From a virus (Duplodnaviria; Heunggongvirae; Uroviricota; Caudoviricetes): a DNA stretch of 9,613 nucleotides. The notes under the pieces are model-generated. The model made no database searches, was not told where the DNA came from, and was given only the letters and a program-made list of their open reading frames with translations. Position numbers and translations under genes: made by a program. Of this stretch, positions 18 to 8,950 are shown piece by piece. Where the stretch lies: IMG/VR virus record IMGVR_UViG_2684622670_000011, positions 1 to 9,613 of that record; one strand, 5' to 3'. Each line of letters begins with the position of its first letter. Position 1 is the first letter of the stretch.

Positions 18-2000
18 TCACCCTGTGAATATGAAAATCAATGGAAAGAGGCTACACGGGTGTCCTGATTTTGTGATCCACAACAATCCATGCAGAATGA
101 CCAGAGCCTCGGCATACACCATCAGGTCAAAAGCTTCGTTGGCACCGCGACCCGGCTTACTCCATTTCCCGTCACTGCTCCGCTCTTCATACGTCAGTTC
201 GTCGTAAAACCAGCTCCCCAGCCAGTCAGGGAAATGCACATAGCCGGGACCTGGCGAGTCACGCCATAACGCGTTATTCACCCGGTCTTTCAGGGCATCC
301 GTCTGAAGAAGCCAGAGCGGCACATCACCTGCGGCCTGCGCCCGTCGGCCCGTTCGTCCGGTGTTATCAGGGAATGTACGGGTGATCAGTTTTGCGCGCC
401 GGATGCTGTCGCCCTTAAACAGGTAAATACGTTTACCAAGGCCATCACGACGGCAACGACGCCAGAATTTATAGGCATTATCAGTGACCCCGTCTTCACC
501 GCCGGAGTCCACCGCCATTGCCATCAGTCGCATTTGTTGAGAAGGATCGGAGGCCAGCGGCCAGCTTTTATGAAAAACATCCGTCAGCAGGACATCCCAG
601 TCTTCCGGATAGCTGGCCGGATCAATTCGCTGGCTCCCCCCGTCGCTGTCACCGCGCAATGACTGCGTGATGTTGTAACGATCAATAATCCAGCGTTCGC
701 CACGGCTGCCATAGCCCGTTACCTGAACCACAAAACGGCGATGACGTCCCGCCTGCACATCCACTGTCGCCACAAGGAAATTAACGCCATCCGGCACACT
801 GCGGGAAGGAACTGGCTCTGCCCGCTGCCCAAGCAGTTCACTTTTTCGTTGCTCCATGCTGGCGCGGGGAAGATAAGGTAATCCCCAGTCGGTATTGATA
901 ACCGTCTTGAGTGTTTCTTCACTTCCGGTTGTCTCGTATTCCTGTTCTGCAGTAAGCAGTTTGTAAACGAGTTGCGAGAGTGTCTGGTAAGCAGCTGCCG
1001 GACCCTCCATCCAGAATGACGCAATACGTGAGCGTCGGGGATCACCATAACGACTGCCATCCGCATTGATGGATTCACCATCCCGCAACCAGACCCCACG
1101 TCCGTTCAGCTCACGTTTTTGTTCAGGCATAATCCGTCCTGAACAGGAAGGACACTGAATATAAGCCGCCTCACTTGCCAGCACGGGATCGGCAATATCA
1201 CGGAAACCAGCAACCACATCGCCGCAGGGCTGAAAATACTCACCACAGTGTGGACAGGGCCAGTACCAGCGACGGCGATCGCCACGGTTATAGAGCGACA
1301 GTATCCCCGTGGTTGGTGGAGCCTCATGCGGTGAAGTCCGTCTCCATTTCACATCCTTCACATCCCTGCCGGGGGAACTCTCCACCAGCGTCATACCGCT
1401 GGACATAAATGTGGTGGTACGTTTTGAGGCAAGAGAGAAAGCATCCCCCTCGCCATCAATATCTTCCGGAAAACGGTCATAATCCGTCAGCGCCACGCAT
1501 TTATAATCTGATGAGGACATGATATTGACTGACGGCCAGCCGATTTTCAGGTAGTTGCCAGCAAGGAATGTTCTGTCATAAACGTTGTTGTCATTTTTGT
1601 TCGGACTCAGGCGACTGACCACTTCCGGGCTGACGCGAAACGTTCTGGCGAGTCGTTTTTTGGAGTGTTCGCGGGCTTTTTCCTCCGTCATCTGAATGAT
1701 CAGCATATCCGCAGGATCGCAAATCACGTTGTAAATCACCCAGCCGTCAATCAGGCCGATAGTCTTGCCGGTTCGTGCCGGGCCAACAAATATCACTGCG
1801 TCGTATTCACGCGAGGCCAGGCAGTTCATCGGCTCAATAACATACGGTGCCACCAGCGGATCCCACGGGACTGAGTTCCCTGCCCCCATGGGCACCCGCA
1901 TATACTGAGCAACGGCATCAGCAACCCGCATTCGTCTCGGTGCGCGAAGGATATAACCTGAATCGGTTCGTGCTGCCTTTGCGGTTTCCTGATTCAGCAT
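18..2000 (-). CDS. A: Phage terminase large subunit (lambda gpA family)
   Basis: 660-aa ORF. Walker-A-like GPARTGKT near the N-terminus; WPCPHCGEYF aligns with lambda gpA ACPHCGEEQY; VWLRDG and NEAFDLMVYAEAL segments match gpA. Start ATG overlaps the stop of the upstream small-subunit gene (TAATG), as in lambda Nu1/A. Confidence 0.9.
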   Translation of the reverse strand: MLNQETAKAARTDSGYILRAPRRMRVADAVAQYMRVPMGAGNSVPWDPLVAPYVIEPMNCLASREYDAVIFVGPARTGKTIGLIDGWVIYNVICDPADMLIIQMTEEKAREHSKKRLARTFRVSPEVVSRLSPNKNDNNVYDRTFLAGNYLKIGWPSVNIMSSSDYKCVALTDYDRFPEDIDGEGDAFSLASKRTTTFMSSGMTLVESSPGRDVKDVKWRRTSPHEAPPTTGILSLYNRGDRRRWYWPCPHCGEYFQPCGDVVAGFRDIADPVLASEAAYIQCPSCSGRIMPEQKRELNGRGVWLRDGESINADGSRYGDPRRSRIASFWMEGPAAAYQTLSQLVYKLLTAEQEYETTGSEETLKTVINTDWGLPYLPRASMEQRKSELLGQRAEPVPSRSVPDGVNFLVATVDVQAGRHRRFVVQVTGYGSRGERWIIDRYNITQSLRGDSDGGSQRIDPASYPEDWDVLLTDVFHKSWPLASDPSQQMRLMAMAVDSGGEDGVTDNAYKFWRRCRRDGLGKRIYLFKGDSIRRAKLITRTFPDNTGRTGRRAQAAGDVPLWLLQTDALKDRVNNALWRDSPGPGYVHFPDWLGSWFYDELTYEERSSDGKWSKPGRGANEAFDLMVYAEALVILHGLLWITKSGHPCSLFPLIFIFTG

Positions 2001-3786: not shown

Positions 3787-4320
3787 TTATCTGTCGATCC
3801 CCCAGCACACCAGCGCACTCTCCTGGTCACGACGAATAACCTGACCGTAACAGTTATTTGAACGAATGCGGCAATCACGGCCACCGTCCTTAATCCACCA
3901 GCGAATCGCCTCGCATGCGCCTTTACGATCACCGGCATTCAGCCGCTTATAAAACGTCGACGGGAAACACTTACCGGGGCCAATGTTATAGGGACAAAAT
4001 GACGCAATACCTGCTTTTTGTGGTTCGGTCAGTGGTACTTTTATATTGCGATCCACCCATGCCAGCGCCTTATCACGTTCAATAGCGTTAACCTGGTCGC
4101 ATTTTTCCTTCGACAGCTTCATTCCCGGTATGACGGGCTTACCATCCACCATTGTGGCACCACGACAGATGGTCCATATGCCAGAACCATCACGGTATGC
4201 CGTTGTGTGGTTACCTTCTTTTTCATCCAGAAACTGGTCAAGTATTTGAGGAGCAGACGCGCCTGCAGCAATCAGCGCCAGAACGGCAGCTGACAGGCCG
4301 TATTTGATTTTTACGTTCAT
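3787..4320 (-). CDS. R: Phage endolysin, GH24 (T4-type) lysozyme with N-terminal signal/SAR segment
   Basis: 177 aa. E-x8-D-x5-T catalytic pattern (EGNHTTAYRDGSGIWT) typical of T4-like lysozymes. N-terminal Ala/Gly-rich hydrophobic segment GLSAAVLALIAAGASA, either a SAR domain or a cleavable signal peptide. Downstream of the pinholin. No obvious SD upstream of the ATG (AU-rich leader ATAAATATCC). Confidence 0.85.
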   Translation of the reverse strand: MNVKIKYGLSAAVLALIAAGASAPQILDQFLDEKEGNHTTAYRDGSGIWTICRGATMVDGKPVIPGMKLSKEKCDQVNAIERDKALAWVDRNIKVPLTEPQKAGIASFCPYNIGPGKCFPSTFYKRLNAGDRKGACEAIRWWIKDGGRDCRIRSNNCYGQVIRRDQESALVCWGIDR

Positions 4321-4433: not shown

Positions 4434-4694
4434 ATGGATTACACAAATCTACCAAAACAAACTTTTGCTGATTTAATCGCACTCAGGCAAGCAGTCGTAG
4501 CTCTAATCAACTTGTTGCCGGAGAAGGAAAAGGAATTAGTTAAAGCGCTTCTTAACAGAACTGCCGCCGATTTTTCATCATATCCACTGACAGATGACCT
4601 TGCGGACCTTCCTGAATTAATTGCAGCGTCCGCCAATAAGCTTACTGAAGAGATTTACCCTCCTCAAAAATCTTCACAAAATTCCTGCGAGTAA
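4434..4694 (+). CDS. Hypothetical acidic 86-aa protein, antisense to the phage late operon, with its own SD and terminator
   Basis: ATG with SD AGAGG; protein-like helical composition (MDYTNLPKQTFADLIALRQAVVALINLLPEKEKELVKALL…). A textbook intrinsic terminator sits 22 nt downstream of the stop (4717-4748). The last 53 nt overlap the 3' end of the convergent 183-aa gene. Confidence 0.5.
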   Translation: MDYTNLPKQTFADLIALRQAVVALINLLPEKEKELVKALLNRTAADFSSYPLTDDLADLPELIAASANKLTEEIYPPQKSSQNSCE

Positions 4695-5193
4695 CTTCAA
4701 TGCAATAATCGTAAAACGCCGCAAACTGCTCATCGCGGCGTTTTTTTTCATCTTCAGAAGGAATCAGCACCGACAATTTTTTATTCAGATCAGCGACGCT
4801 GCCCTCCAGTTTTTCAATGGGCGATTCAATATCATCTTTTTCTGACCGCAATGCCGTCGGTGGCGTCTTCAGAGAACCAGTAATTCTTCCCGGTAGCTTT
4901 CCTTTGTAGGTTATCCACACATTCTGCGCCTCTAAAATTATGGGGCGCTTTTCCGGCGACTGCTCATCCCCTTCACATAACCCGGCAGCAACATCCAGGA
5001 AGTCCTGTCTGATGCTCCTTCTGGCTGCTGCCTCATAAAACTCCAGCGCGGCACCTTCAACACGGTCCAGCGAGATGTCCAGGTCAAAAATTTCACCGTC
5101 AAAGTGTTTTTTGTCCCGTAAGGCTACAGTTACCGCCACTTTATTCTCAAAATTGCGAACTCCTTTCACAACCAGTTCATAGTCTTGAGTCAT
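4642..5193 (-). CDS. Hypothetical 183-aa soluble acidic protein inserted between holin and endolysin; N-terminus possibly DUF1327/YdfR-like (unverified)
   Basis: ATG at 5191-5193 lies 4 nt after the holin stop, with a purine-rich GAGAAGAGAG SD inside the holin 3' end, suggesting translational coupling to S. The ORF-track start at 5214 is a TTG overlapping the holin and is not favoured. No TM segments; charged, coiled-coil-like C-terminal half. Confidence 0.6.
   Translation of the reverse strand: MTQDYELVVKGVRNFENKVAVTVALRDKKHFDGEIFDLDISLDRVEGAALEFYEAAARRSIRQDFLDVAAGLCEGDEQSPEKRPIILEAQNVWITYKGKLPGRITGSLKTPPTALRSEKDDIESPIEKLEGSVADLNKKLSVLIPSEDEKKRRDEQFAAFYDYCIEVTRRNFVKIFEEGKSLQ
4717..4748 (+). 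terminator. Rho-independent terminator of the 86-aa plus-strand gene, embedded inside the minus-strand 183-aa CDS
   Basis: CGCCGC (4717-4722), 11-nt loop, GCGGCG (4735-4740), then T8 (4741-4748). On the minus strand the same bases encode KKRRDEQFAAFY of the 183-aa protein. Confidence 0.65.
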
Positions 5194-5197
5194 TGGA

Positions 5198-5413
5198 TTA
5201 CTCTCTTCTCGCAACCTTACGCCTGTCTTCTTTAATCTTGAAATAAAGGTTTGTCAGATACGTCAGCATGCCAAATACCAGACTACCCAATACACCTATT
5301 GCCGCCCACTGTGAGGGCGTGACTTTATCGAGCAACTGTAAAAACCAGTAGCCAGCACTGCCTGCAGAGGTGCTGTAGGCGATGCCCGTTGTTAACTTAT
5401 CCATGGATTTCAT
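5198..5413 (-). CDS. S: Class II holin, phage 21 S21-type pinholin with dual-start (antiholin/holin) motif
   Basis: 71 aa, [71 protein letters not shown], matching my recollection of S21 almost residue for residue. MKSM dual start, two TMDs, strong SD GGAGGTGA upstream of the ATG at 5411-5413. Confidence 0.9.
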
Positions 5414-5502
5414 AGCCTCACCTCCGCAGATAACGGATGGTGTACACGGTTTGGTTCGAAGAAGGAAAGAAGTTACATTAGCGTAAGGCCCGAACATCTA
5501 TT

Positions 5503-5534
5503 CAAAAAGAAAAACGCCAGCAATTATTCTGGCG
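5503..5534 (-). terminator. Rho-independent terminator downstream of the AraC-family gene
   Basis: Minus strand: CGCCAG, loop AATAATTG, CTGGCG, then TTTTTCTTTTTG; about 70 nt after the regulator stop codon. Confidence 0.5.
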
Positions 5535-5603: not shown

Positions 5604-6317
5604 CTAAGAAAATCTTGATAAATATTGGTGCGGAGGCACACCAAAATATCCTCTAAAAACACTTACAAAATATGATGCATTGTCATACCCGCATATTCCC
5701 GCCACCTTGCCGACAGTATGGTTACTGTAGATCAATAATCTTTGCGCCATCATCATTCGTTCTTCAAGAATTAATTTACTAAACGATAACCCTTCATCTT
5801 CTAATTTTCTTTTTAACAAACTCTCGCTCATATATAATCTTGAAGATATATCACAAAGTCTCCATGACGCTGAGATATCCGAGTGAATAATAGCCTTAAC
5901 TTTACAACCTAAGCTATTAAGACTTCCGAACAAAAAACTTTGCACTATTTTCTCTGAAGATAAGACAGCAAGACATGCAAGTGATATTTGATTTCTAACT
6001 ACATCCACGGTTTTGCTATCACAATTCAAGCATGCAACCAAGTTCTTTAACAATGAAAAATCTTCACATTCTACTATAAAGTATGACGGATAAAACCTTC
6101 TTACAGAAAAAGGTGAGAGTGTGTAGTTTTTAAAGAAATCATTAACTGTTTTCTCCTCAACATCTACGATCATTAGATGATCTGTATTTGACGAAAAAAG
6201 ATCTTTTAAATTGTATTCAATGAGAACAGCATTTCCTTTTTTAAACAAAATATCTTCTTTACCAATTCGGACACCAAACGAGTTCAACACCAAAATGATA
6301 GAACATATGTATGGCAT
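5604..6317 (-). CDS. AraC/XylS-family transcriptional regulator, AppY/EnvY-like
   Basis: 237 aa from the ATG at 6315-6317, with SD AGGTGG 5 nt upstream (the GTG at 6326 is less likely). C-terminal AraC HTH region WRLCDISSRLYMSESLLKRKLEDEGLSFSKLILEERMMMAQRLL...GICGYDNASYFVSVFRGYFGVPPHQY aligns closely with my recollection of E. coli AppY. N-terminus MPYICSIILVLNSF resembles AppY MDYVCSVVFICQSF. Gene and flanks are visibly AT-rich. Confidence 0.8.
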   Translation of the reverse strand: MPYICSIILVLNSFGVRIGKEDILFKKGNAVLIEYNLKDLFSSNTDHLMIVDVEEKTVNDFFKNYTLSPFSVRRFYPSYFIVECEDFSLLKNLVACLNCDSKTVDVVRNQISLACLAVLSSEKIVQSFLFGSLNSLGCKVKAIIHSDISASWRLCDISSRLYMSESLLKRKLEDEGLSFSKLILEERMMMAQRLLIYSNHTVGKVAGICGYDNASYFVSVFRGYFGVPPHQYLSRFS

Positions 6318-6723
6318 ATTATCCACCTGATATCATTGGGGTTACACCAGGTAAGTATAGGTGGAAAATCAATATTCGCCAGTTCAACAATAAGGAAAAT
6401 CTCATTGCATCACAACTATAAAACCATGTGTTTAACTCACAAAAAACAAATCATTAAACTAATCTGTTATATTATAATAGCTGCGTGCAATAATAATATT
6501 ATATGCTCTTAATATTCACTTGAAATATCTTCATATAAAAACAGATTGAATAAAATCTTTTGGGGCTGGTATGTTTACCAACATTAAATTGCATCTCAAT
6601 GTTTTCTTTAGCGTGAACAGGATTTTTATAAAAACTGACACTATGAGCATCATAGCGTAGTTTTTACGATTGTAAATATCCTGCATACAGGAACTCATCA
6701 CTTTCAGATGATATCGCATACAG
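6318..6723 (-). promoter_or_regulatory. AT-rich ~400 bp intergenic region upstream of the AppY-like gene (probable promoter and silencing region)
   Basis: Very AT-rich with many TATAAT-like hexamers on both strands and no convincing ORF. Typical of upstream regions of horizontally acquired AraC-family genes. No specific promoter assigned. Confidence 0.3.
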
Positions 6724-7683
6724 TTAATTCACCATCAGTCTTAGAGCCAGTTCTTCCGGATAGGGATCGAAGTAATTCTGTGTAAGCAAGTAATCATTAG
6801 GATACTCACCCAGATAATGCTTCAGCAGAGTCAACGGCGCAAGAAGAGGCAATGTGCCAAAGCGATAGTTAAGTATAACCTCGCTCAACTCTTTACGCTG
6901 GCGTGTACTTAAGTAATTACTAAAATACCCCTGTATATGCATCAGCACATTCGTGTGATTTTTACGTGATGCTGGTTTTCTGAGAATCGCCATCAGATTA
7001 TCACGATACACCTCAAAGTATGATTCAAGGTCCGCCCACTCGTGTATTGCAGCCACAAATGGTCCCATATCTTTATAGCCTGCCTGGCTATGCGCCAACA
7101 ACTGAAGCTTATAACGACTATGAAAAGCTAATAACTCTCTTCTTGATAATTTCTCCTTGTAAAGGTGATTGAGCTCATGCAAAGCAAAAACTCTTTCAAT
7201 AAAATTCTCACGAAGCACTGGATCATGTAATCGCCCATCCTCTTCAACCGGTAGCCAGGAAAACTTTTCCATCAAAGTGCTCGTAAATAGTCCCACTCCA
7301 TCTTTACGACCTCGATTACCATTTTCATCATAGACACGCACGCGCTCCATGCCACAGCTGGGAGATTTAGCACAAACCACAAACCCCGATACATCCTTTA
7401 ATTTGTCCATATAAGAACGACTAAACTCTGTCATTCTCTCTGTCACATCCTCATTCTGGTCGTGGCTGAAACACATCTGTATATTTCCTTGCTTCGAGCG
7501 CACAAGTCGTAGAGCAGGACGCGGAACTGGCAGCCCTATAGCCATTTCCGGACATACTGGTCTGAATGTTACCCATTCCACTAATTTGTCCATTAAAAAG
7601 TCATCTCTTTTGTGACCACCATCAAAACGAACAGCAGAACCGCCCAAACAACCGCTGATCCCAATCACAGGTTTTTTTATCAT
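6724..7683 (-). CDS. Fused DUF523 (TudS-like [4Fe-4S] thio-nucleobase desulfurase) / DUF1722 (YbgA-like) protein
   Basis: 319 aa. N-terminal half has conserved cysteines in DUF523-like spacing (GISGCLGG, RPVCPEM, CAKSPSCG); C-terminal half is helical and YbgA-like. SD GGGGGAGG immediately upstream of the ATG at 7681-7683. Confidence 0.75.
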   Translation of the reverse strand: MIKKPVIGISGCLGGSAVRFDGGHKRDDFLMDKLVEWVTFRPVCPEMAIGLPVPRPALRLVRSKQGNIQMCFSHDQNEDVTERMTEFSRSYMDKLKDVSGFVVCAKSPSCGMERVRVYDENGNRGRKDGVGLFTSTLMEKFSWLPVEEDGRLHDPVLRENFIERVFALHELNHLYKEKLSRRELLAFHSRYKLQLLAHSQAGYKDMGPFVAAIHEWADLESYFEVYRDNLMAILRKPASRKNHTNVLMHIQGYFSNYLSTRQRKELSEVILNYRFGTLPLLAPLTLLKHYLGEYPNDYLLTQNYFDPYPEELALRLMVN

Positions 7684-7875
7684 TTCCTCCCCCTTGACTA
7701 ATTCATTAACACATAAACTTTGTAGTGCACGGACTAAATTGCCTTTCTGGCTTCATCACTGACAATTTTTCTGTTATTGACTATTCCTAATATAGTAGGA
7801 AAGTTCTTTAAGTGATCGGTCGTACTCATCTATCTTTCATACTTACTCTCAACTATCAAAAGTACAGGATTTATT
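7684..7875. promoter_or_regulatory. Divergent intergenic region between the DUF523/DUF1722 gene and the lipocalin gene
   Basis: 192 bp AT-rich spacer between divergently oriented starts; contains TTGACT hexamers (e.g. near 7693 and 7779) but no confidently paired -10 element. Confidence 0.3.
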
Positions 7876-8400
7876 ATGAAGTTATGGCCTGTGTTGACTG
7901 GCATTGCACTCTCTTTCACTCTTATAGCATGTAAGGCCCCGACACCACCTAAAGGTGTGCAGCCGATTACAAATTTTGACGCCAACCGCTACCTCGGAAA
8001 ATGGTATGAAATAGCTCGCCTCGAGAACTGGTTCGAACGTGGTCTGGAACAGGTCAGCGCTACTTATGAAAAACGGAACGACGGAGGGATTCGCGTACTT
8101 AACCGTGGATACGATCCAACGAAAAACAAATGGAGCGAGAGCGAAGGTAAAGCATACTTTACTGGAGATACTAAAACTGCAGCGTTGAAAGTTTCGTTTT
8201 TTGGCCCCTTCTATGGTGGCTATAATGTAATCAAACTGGATGATGAGTATAAGTATGCTCTTGTCAGTGGTCCGAACAGAGAATACCTATGGATTCTGGC
8301 AAGGACCCAAACTATTCCAGATAATGTAAAAGCAGACTATGTGCGTACCGCTCAAAAGTTGGGATTCAATGTCAATGAACTATTATGGGTTAATCAATAA
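7876..8400 (+). CDS. blc: Bacterial lipocalin Blc-like outer-membrane lipoprotein
   Basis: 174 aa. Signal peptide with lipobox LIAC then CKAPTPPKG. NFDANRYLGKWYEIARLENWFERGLEQV, SEGKAYFTGD, ALKVSFFGPFYGGYNVI and YLWILART blocks match E. coli Blc motifs (roughly half or more of residues identical by eye). SD AGGA 6 nt upstream of the ATG. Confidence 0.85.
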   Translation: MKLWPVLTGIALSFTLIACKAPTPPKGVQPITNFDANRYLGKWYEIARLENWFERGLEQVSATYEKRNDGGIRVLNRGYDPTKNKWSESEGKAYFTGDTKTAALKVSFFGPFYGGYNVIKLDDEYKYALVSGPNREYLWILARTQTIPDNVKADYVRTAQKLGFNVNELLWVNQ

Positions 8401-8428
8401 AATCCCCACCCGAAATGATACTTATTAG

Positions 8429-8455
8429 AAAAAAACCAGCCTTTGGGGAGGCTGG
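8429..8455 (-). terminator. Rho-independent terminator downstream of Q (tR'-like)
   Basis: Minus strand: CCAGCCT, loop CCCCAA, AGGCTGG, then T7; about 100 bp downstream of the Q stop. On the plus strand the hairpin is not followed by a T-run, so it is oriented for minus-strand transcripts. Confidence 0.55.
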
Positions 8456-8555
8456 CTAAATCAGGAAACAAGCTGTTATATGATAATAACTACGTTGCGA
8501 TTCCAACATTTAAAATGTTAGACTAATGAAAATCAGACAGCAACTTTTCCTTTAA
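8456..8555 (-). promoter_or_regulatory. Putative late promoter pR' and qut region
   Basis: Position immediately downstream of Q and upstream of the tR'-like terminator matches lambdoid late-control architecture. Candidate hexamers TTGGAA...TATCAT and a near-palindrome AACATTTTAAATGTT (plus-strand coordinates about 8501-8520); exact promoter not resolved. Confidence 0.35.
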
Positions 8556-8933
8556 TTATTTCGAACAATCAGCATCCATCTCCAATCGGAGATCCAACAC
8601 CATCAGCATGCCCTCCACTACGCCCTCAGCTTTCTGGAGCATCCTGCCAACCCAACAATCAGATCGCCCATGCTTACGTGCAAGCGCCATAAAAGTCATG
8701 CCGCCGACATAATAGTCCACCAATAAATCATGTAAATCGCTGTTGTTTTTTTTCAGGCGAGCCATACATTCACAAATGATCATCGCGTCATCGTCACAGC
8801 ATTGCGGACGAGATCTTACTTTTGAAGGAATTAATCCCTTAAAACCGGCGGCAATGGACGACCAGGTCACATCTTCATGATTATTAGCCGCCCATGCCCC
8901 CCAACGCTCAAGAACCATCTGAATATCACGCAT
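8556..8933 (-). CDS. Q: Late-gene antiterminator Q (phage 82 / DLP12 QuuD type)
   Basis: 125 aa from the ATG at 8931-8933 (SD GGAG upstream; the ORF-track start at 8948 is a TTG). [35 protein letters not shown]...[32 protein letters not shown] matches my recollection of E. coli QuuD closely. Confidence 0.85.
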
Positions 8934-8950
8934 CAACTTACTCCACAAAA

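Follow-up and report, generated by a model that had tools for sequence, protein, structure and literature searches.

The analysed window, one whole contig of 9,613 nucleotides, is a lambdoid late region. The plus strand carries only the gene under study, a blc-like lipocalin gene, and one small ORF (4434-4694); everything else of substantial size is encoded on the minus strand. The features of the region are listed in Table 1. The remaining minus-strand genes are a DUF968/YdfU-like gene ahead of Q, a DUF1327 gene between holin and lysozyme, and Rz/Rz1 and a DUF1441 gene between lysozyme and terminase. Truncation of the DUF968 gene was considered as a real defect and rejected, as the gene merely runs off the contig end.

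Table 1. Coordinates of genes and sequence features in the window.
Feature	Position	Strand	Details
Large terminase	18..2000	-	
Lysozyme	3787..4320	-	
P21-type holin	5198..5497	-	
AraC-family regulator (YdeO/GadX-like)	5604..6326	-	Profile matches
rudS	6724..7683	-	TudS/DUF523 + DUF1722 fusion; Cys12, Cys44, Cys110; divergent partner of blc
Divergent blc/rudS intergenic region	7684..7875		Alignment with donor-type loci
18-bp near-palindrome, TTCCTAATA followed by TAGTAGGAA	7784..7801		Overlaps donor-conserved AATATA[G/C]TA[G/C]GAA
CATACT, candidate blc -10	7838..7843	+	About 33 nt 5' of ATG; inferred from comparative alignment
Shine-Dalgarno AGGA	7866..7869	+	6 nt 5' of ATG; read from sequence
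blc-like gene	7876..8400	+	174-aa prolipoprotein, bacterial lipocalin (Blc) family; ATG start
Predicted signal peptide with lipobox L-I-A-C (Cys19)	7876..7932	+	GIALSFTLIAC, residues 9-19; lipoprotein pattern match
Intrinsic terminator, predicted tR'	8427..8457	-	Stem AGCCAGCC/GGCTGG(TT), then T7
-10-like TATTAT	8483..8488	-	Possible sigma-70 pause site
Candidate late promoter pR' (TTGCTG-17 nt-TAACAT)	8515..8543	-	Conserved; function inferred from lambdoid architecture
Antiterminator Q (PF06530)	8556..8948	-	Convergent with blc

The plus-strand gene is a Blc-type lipocalin gene, as the initial annotation had stated. Its product matched Pfam Lipocalin_2 (PF08212) with an E-value of 9.4e-43 and, over the full length (residues 1-174), the NCBIfam model NF007786 'outer membrane lipoprotein Blc' with 312.4 bits, above the curated cutoff of 267 bits. 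All Pfam and NCBIfam family matches of phage Blc were to lipocalins. Alignment with the solved E. coli Blc structures (3mbt, 1qwd and 2aco) was gapless, with E-values of 1e-66 to 1e-65 and 62% identity over the mature protein, which supports a lipocalin fold. The exact protein of the window is WP_059276430.1; its PHROG family, phrog_2809, is annotated as 'unknown function'.

The lipobox that had been read from the sequence was recovered as well. Its cysteine, Cys19, is invariant in 121 of 121 homologues and is shared with K-12 Blc. The +2 residue of phage Blc is Lys, likewise found in 105 of the 121 homologues, and the protein therefore lacks the Asp inner-membrane retention signal. Together, the lipobox and the +2 residue point to a type II signal peptide and to sorting to the outer membrane. 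The lipocalin G-x-W motif is present as G41-K-W43, and 93 of 97 strongly conserved positions (at least 90% across 120 homologues) are kept. For the ligand pocket we took the published list of 19 residues that lie no more than 4 Å from the ligand when E. coli Blc is bound to heme (PMC8177097). At 18 of these phage Blc is identical to K-12 Blc, the sole change being K77R.

An outer-membrane lipoprotein of a temperate phage, predicted to be made in the lysogen, might also serve superinfection exclusion by blocking a phage receptor from the periplasmic side, as Cor or T5 Llp do, and lambda morons are mostly membrane proteins (PMC6969025). For the present gene we consider this very unlikely. Phage Blc is a conservative Blc that scores above the NCBIfam cutoff, keeps nearly the whole pocket and is 76-79% identical to chromosomal orthologues, which argues for the ancestral lipid-binding role. 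A PADLOC scan of the cassette proteins gave no match to known defence proteins, and an assignment of blc to the known exclusion or defence proteins was dropped, given that its family matches are to lipocalins only.

The allele of the window carries several substitutions. Position 52, which adjoins the pocket residues F53 and E54, is Arg in 118 of 121 homologues and Trp here (R52W); G65E and P145Q are further changes at otherwise conserved positions. The allele may therefore be weakened. R52W is also present in the L001-type allele, a member of the class with at least 99% identity (409 records).

The initial annotation had placed the gene in a prophage, and this was upheld. Genes for Q, holin, lysozyme, Rz/Rz1 and terminase flank blc, and the same order is found in viable phages. 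Specifically, the isolated phages 1H12 and IdasGreatGrand share the order Q-blc(+)-rudS(-)-araC(-)-holin, as do two further prophages and the complete prophage at the Qin site of E. coli 13P484A; the nin and lysis modules vary among these loci. The objection that the flanks might belong to the native chromosomal blc locus, for which the family name only can be adduced, is thereby already refuted: the neighbours are phage genes and the gene recurs in isolated phages. Moreover, blc genes of the canonical clade sit elsewhere: in C. freundii (60% identity) the neighbours are a sugE-like SMR gene and a gene for a LuxR-type regulator, and more generally the clade is found beside sugE/ecnR-type genes. 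In a blastn search with phage blc over complete E. coli genomes, the species' own blc went undetected.

Within this context blc is one gene of a three-gene cassette (blc, rudS, araC) that occupies a known accessory slot, from Q to holin, flanked by core phage genes. The GC content is 38-44% over blc/rudS and 30-35% over araC, compared with 52-56% in the structural genes and terminase. The low GC content and the chromosomal location of the nearest relatives in other genera mark the cassette as foreign to the phage backbone. The rudS product is 91.5% identical to gp66 of phage 1H12, which is RudS_vir, and expression of RudS_vir in E. coli lowers tRNA 4-thiouridine (Jamontas et al. 2024, PMC11417400); the product is thus predicted to be a tRNA 4-thiouridine desulfidase. 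That study noted a MerR gene beside rudS in E. cloacae, and the lipocalin goes unmentioned there. The AraC-family protein is 47% identical over its full length to ECs_0287 of strain Sakai, which is the only AraC-type regulator of prophage Sp1/OI-8 and therefore probably PatE. An identification of the AraC neighbour as PsrA/PsrB was also tried and found unsupported, since Sakai prophage Sp6 is without any AraC gene.

With regard to the origin of blc, the initial annotation had gone too far in calling it a paralogue of the host's chromosomal gene. Phage Blc and K-12 Blc (1QWD, 2ACO, 3MBT) belong to the same family and yet are only 58.6% identical (61.9% in the mature part). The closest chromosomal homologues, at 76-79%, were found in Enterobacter, Leclercia, Buttiauxella, Huaxiibacter and Kosakonia, followed by Raoultella with 72%. 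In a neighbour-joining tree phage Blc fell within this Enterobacter-type clade, apart from the Blc proteins of E. coli, Salmonella and Citrobacter. Phage blc thus appears to be a xenologue from a distinct second Blc clade, not a duplicate of the host blc.

The chromosomal loci of the second clade share their organization with the phage. At ten of them blc is divergent from a MerR-family gene, usually followed by uraH and then by a gene with the DUF523 and DUF1722 domains. The proteins encoded by the latter at Enterobacter-type loci are 70-72% identical to phage RudS. The regulator is MlrA-like, with Pfam MlrA_helical and MlrA_C matches; its NCBIfam MlrA score of 196 bits is below the cutoff, and CarH ranked second. 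The divergent rudS geometry and the alignable 5' region are common to the phage and to the Enterobacter/Leclercia/Buttiauxella/Huaxiibacter/Raoultella clade. Unlike these, the phage version has neither the MlrA-like regulator nor uraH, and blc abuts the phage tR'. The right ~100 nt of the blc/rudS intergenic region have their homologue between merR and blc at Enterobacter-type loci; for the left ~95 nt there is no counterpart in these loci, merR and uraH being absent. Past the blc stop no donor sequence was recognized. Because the phage keeps blc and rudS in the donor's divergent order, we infer a single capture of the pair, in which the regulator and uraH dropped out. Between the phage and donor-type genes synonymous sites are saturated, hence the capture is old.

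This shared geometry also raises the idea of a module against light or near-UV. Here blc and rudS would be a functional pair from a locus regulated by an MlrA/CarH-like protein, with the regulator left behind. RudS would erase photosensitive tRNA s4U, while Blc, in the envelope, would bind away porphyrins that act as photosensitisers, or lipids oxidised by light, or would help to destroy them. One lambdoid Q module would have spread the pair to about one fifth of E. coli genomes, a species natively without RudS. The divergent blc and merR-uraH-rudS arrangement in at least ten chromosomal loci, kept in the phage, fits this idea. So do the published tie of RudS to light-responsive MerR regulators, with UVA-induced s4U loss in E. 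cloacae (PMC11417400), and the binding of hematoporphyrin by E. coli Blc at ~0.14 nM; an accelerated degradation of hematoporphyrin is speculation of the authors of that work (PMC8177097). However, Blc-RudS adjacency was rejected as a general rule: it is specific to one enterobacterial clade, and RudS was found near only 1 of ~50 distant Blc loci (L051). Even within the second clade, the Kosakonia and Pantoea members have no rudS nearby, and both the light response of the regulator and its control of blc are hypothetical. Such a paired role is therefore rather improbable in our view.

The initial annotation had also assigned to blc its own Shine-Dalgarno sequence and its own upstream region, and both assignments hold. 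The AGGA is common to the phage and Enterobacter-type blc copies, and the last ~100 nt before the gene can be aligned with the sequence 5' of donor-type chromosomal blc. Two blocks upstream are conserved between phage and donor, AATATA[G/C]TA[G/C]GAA and CA[T/C]ACTT. The near-palindrome that overlaps the first block is a candidate operator and/or a candidate -10 (TATATT, minus strand) for rudS. The second block reads gCacTACACTtaa, which is sigma-S-like, in Enterobacter-type blc and tTTCATACTTac in the phage. The candidate blc -10 within it is imperfect, the hexamer starting with C in place of the T of TATAAT. A scan of the plus strand upstream of blc for consensus sigma-70 promoters found none, and the proposed blc promoter accordingly comes from the comparative alignment only.

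Downstream, blc runs against late transcription, as had been stated at the outset, with blc on the plus strand and the late genes on the minus strand. The predicted tR' hairpin lies 34 nt past the blc stop and is identical in 6 other phage or prophage copies. In the direction of blc it is predicted to be a weak terminator, because no U tract follows on that side, and this reverse face is the only candidate terminator for blc. The motifs that separate the Q stop from the blc stop fit a layout of pR', promoter-proximal pause and tR'. Q-modified late transcription would thus cross blc in antisense on its way to rudS, araC and the lysis module, and blc must then have independent transcription. An Rfam scan of the region gave two sub-threshold matches that were treated as chance; one of them, to a Betaproteobacteria toxic sRNA (28.6 vs 50 bits), fell on the tR' hairpin.

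The same arrangement could be regulatory in itself. Convergent blc transcription, passing through the weak reverse side of tR' into pR' and Q, would damp leaky late expression, and the protein would be secondary. The short distance from the end of blc to the hairpin and the U tract on the late strand only would suit such a unit. It would leave unexplained why the protein is under purifying selection and why pocket and lipobox are conserved, and it is purely inferential. We give this reading very little credence.

The distribution of blc was assessed in complete E. coli genomes. At a coverage of at least 80%, blc was present in about 1,045 of 5,426 genomes (~19%), with 409 records at ≥99% identity and 721 at 95-99%. 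The Q/pR' segment gave nearly equal counts (415 and 725, respectively), so that blc is practically confined to a single Q allele. The Q that comes next in similarity, quuD, is about 85% identical (coding part only) and is without the cassette. The tight linkage to Q could stem partly from hitch-hiking. In the phage collection searched, 12 lambdoid coliphages and the Morganella phage IME1369_01 carry genuine phage-borne Blc genes, and the latter is an independent capture.

Selection on the protein was estimated from pairwise comparisons. Among phage alleles of blc, dN/dS was 0.06-0.28, with dS up to 0.20. For rudS, pairs with at least 9 synonymous differences gave 0.11-0.27, with dS up to 0.30; one near-identical rudS pair had a dN/dS of 0.42 that derives from 2 synonymous and 3 non-synonymous changes. 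These low values indicate purifying selection on blc and rudS within the phage lineage.

Linkage and selection bear on the question whether blc is a mere passenger, with selection acting on rudS and/or the AraC regulator or the Q module and blc being useless to the lysogen. The gene would then persist simply through its position, 34 nt from tR' and 192 nt from rudS. The near-perfect linkage to one Q/pR' allele and the co-capture with rudS can be read this way, and the commonest class of near-identical alleles has the substitutions R52W, G65E and P145Q described above. Against this stand the low dN/dS across alleles that have diverged to the dS given above, the intact pocket and lipobox, the separate acquisition of a Blc gene by the Morganella phage, and the stress-induced production of a closely related prophage allele as a protein (see below). 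On balance a passenger role is unlikely.

Evidence for expression comes from published data. A TMT proteomics study of E. coli CCUG 70745 (PMC13459554, 2026) quantified a 'Blc' protein, WP_000780581.1, that increased 1.99-fold and 2.98-fold at two meropenem doses. It was grouped with envelope-stress proteins including Spy, PspC, MliC and other envelope lipoproteins. We found that WP_000780581.1 is the prophage lipocalin of locus L007, 97.1% identical to the protein of the window. The study makes no mention of a prophage origin and does not explicitly separate the chromosomal Blc. The objection that a prophage copy might not be expressed at all is thus countered by detection of this allele in another strain. 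The proteomics allele is a different allele, from a different species than that of the window.

That blc might be a conversion gene, the central proposal of the initial annotation, is supported by our data and had already been published, likewise as a prediction: among 19 infant-gut lambda phages, Mathieu et al. 2020 (PMC6969025) found blc in more than 50% and classed it with the predicted morons. Our literature search for a functional or phenotype test of phage blc found none, and the physiological role of E. coli Blc itself is unsettled (PMC8177097). The finding is thus largely ordinary: the protein departs little from a known family, and the gene occupies a classical moron slot. Modest new points are the assignment to a second-clade xenologue, the co-capture of rudS from a locus with an MlrA-like regulator, the lock to one Q allele, and the recognition of prophage-copy protein expression in published data.

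Taken together, we favour with moderate confidence the view that the gene encodes a functional Blc-type lipocalin, a phage moron expressed in the lysogen and captured together with rudS from an Enterobacter-like locus. Where the protein would sit, what it would bind and how the host might profit are extrapolated from E. coli Blc, and the putative promoter from the alignment with donor-type loci. The source would be a chromosomal locus of an Enterobacter-like bacterium in which blc diverges from mlrA-like-uraH-rudS, the regulator and uraH being lost en route. In the phage, blc would be transcribed alone from the co-acquired promoter region, opposite to Q-dependent late transcription; with its own, opposite transcription, the gene would be active in the lysogen and stand outside the lytic programme. 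Lipidated at Cys19, the prolipoprotein would be delivered by the Lol system to the outer membrane, on its periplasmic side, and would bind hydrophobic ligands of the E. coli Blc class there, namely lysophospholipids or fatty acids and possibly tetrapyrroles. The gene would add a second, divergent Blc to the envelope-stress equipment of the host.

Several known systems are comparable. The closest is gp65 of phage 1H12 and its kin (Lambda_2E9 and the Lambda_ev series), which is the same gene (95.4% amino acid identity) in the same Q-blc-rudS-araC-holin order; at the nucleotide level the gene with its flanks is 93% identical. In contrast to the 1H12 type, the allele of the window is from E. albertii and carries R52W, G65E, P145Q and K173N, and the lysis module is a different one, with a P21-type holin. 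Lambda Bor/Iss and Lom are likewise outer-membrane proteins expressed in lysogens from lambdoid accessory slots, as is predicted for blc. They show no sequence or fold kinship to Blc; bor lies after the lysis genes, whereas blc lies between Q and S. Bor/Iss confers a serum-resistance phenotype, to which any counterpart in phage blc is hypothetical. Both bor/iss and blc are present in phage 1H12 and in the L006 prophage.

Transfer of a chromosomal blc onto a mobile element is also seen in plasmids, where blc accompanies Citrobacter-derived ampC regions. The E. coli plasmid NZ_CP081685.1 carries an Enterobacter-type blc-merR-uraH-rudS segment, in which blc is truncated and lies beside IS26. These plasmid copies differ from phage blc in that they have 67-74% nucleotide identity and are not phage-borne. 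The Blc gene of the Morganella phage IME1369_01 likewise sits in an accessory slot of a temperate phage. It differs in its 50% identity, in its location, with the lysis genes on one side, the small terminase on the other and all in one orientation, and in a score of 235 bits, below the NCBIfam Blc cutoff of 267.

If phage Blc aids envelope-stress tolerance, a very common prophage cassette would harden commensal and pathogenic Escherichia. This cassette, present in ~19% of complete E. coli genomes, brings Blc together with an eraser of tRNA s4U and a PatE-like regulator of the acid-resistance type. Beta-lactams in particular are hinted at as the relevant stress by the 2-3-fold rise under meropenem. 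In addition, 'Blc' signals in strain-specific proteomics may stem from the prophage copy and not from the chromosomal one. In a study of STEC, 'Blc' (A0A7U9G1P7) was 4-6 times higher in two strains than in EDL933; that protein may be either the prophage or the chromosomal copy.

The blc locus has also been carried by other mobile elements. On plasmid NZ_CP081685.1 of E. coli (304 kb), the segment 162819-173147 holds merR-uraH-rudS of the Enterobacter mori type, with 99-100% amino acid identity, and a blc gene truncated at its 3' end. A copy of IS26 lies past rudS and integrase genes lie past the truncated blc. This plasmid is a second, independent mobilisation route for the blc-merR-uraH-rudS locus. 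Morganella phage IME1369_01 encodes a Blc homologue (5001-5516, 50% identity) that is independent of the coliphage blc and has the lysis genes on one side and the small terminase gene on the other. Another gene in this record has the annotation lipid A lauroyl acyltransferase, and this phage therefore carries envelope-modifying cargo.

Two further copies of the coliphage segment were found. The Q-blc-rudS segment is present with 96-98% amino acid identity in JARKOR010000135.1, a contig of 2.1 kb that was assigned to a 'Candidatus Nanosynbacter' bin and is almost certainly a binning contaminant. The prophage of E. coli JS316 is decaying, with araC frameshifted and rrrD truncated by IS3. Both blc and rudS are intact there, providing anecdotal support for retention at the host level.

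The Blc protein of the window carries the substitutions R52W, G65E and P145Q, an allele shared with the L001 prophage (at least 99% identity class). Arg52 is found in 118 of 121 homologues, and Arg, Gly and Pro are kept at the three positions in the other phage alleles and in all donor-type genes, the chromosomal blc copies divergent from merR-uraH-rudS. The allele may be weakened or altered.

Features of the blc cassette and the neighbouring lysis genes
Feature	Position	Strand	Remarks
Lysozyme	3787-4320		N-terminus hydrophobic, Gly/Ala-rich
86-aa ORF	4434-4694	+	phrog_2572 (unknown function)
DUF1327 gene	4642-5214	-	
Holin	5198-5497		P21-type
AraC-family regulator	5604-6326	-	YdeO/GadX-like; in 30-35% GC DNA
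Spacer beside araC	6327-6723		AT-rich
Terminator-like site	6658-6638	-	upstream of araC
Promoter-like site	6676-6649	-	upstream of araC
rudS	6724-7683	-	DUF523(TudS)+DUF1722 fusion; RudS tRNA 4-thiouridine desulfidase
Palindrome	7784-7801		18 bp, near-perfect, TTCCTAATA/TAGTAGGAA; blc/rudS intergenic region
Blc residue 52	8029-8031		
Blc residue 65	8068-8070		
Blc residue 145	8308-8310		

The intergenic palindrome overlaps a block conserved with the Enterobacter-type loci and is possibly an operator. The rudS gene is oriented with late transcription. Its product is 91.5% identical to gp66 of phage 1H12 (RudS_vir), which was assayed in PMC11417400. RudS is natively absent from E. coli; thus, a tRNA-demodifying enzyme is supplied by the prophage. 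The AraC protein shows 47% identity to Sakai ECs_0287, the probable PatE, an activator of acid resistance. Between cassette variants it retains 75-86% amino acid identity, a divergence far above that of blc or rudS.

In the lysis cassette, the lysozyme N-terminus looks like a signal-anchor-release (SAR) domain. Holin and lysozyme genes are separated by the DUF1327 gene and the 86-aa ORF on the opposite strand, which may be a further small accessory gene. At the hairpin of tR', the predicted late terminator beyond blc, a sub-threshold Rfam match to a Betaproteobacteria toxic sRNA (8427-8470, minus strand; 28.6 versus 50 bits) was judged a chance similarity of the terminator stem-loop.
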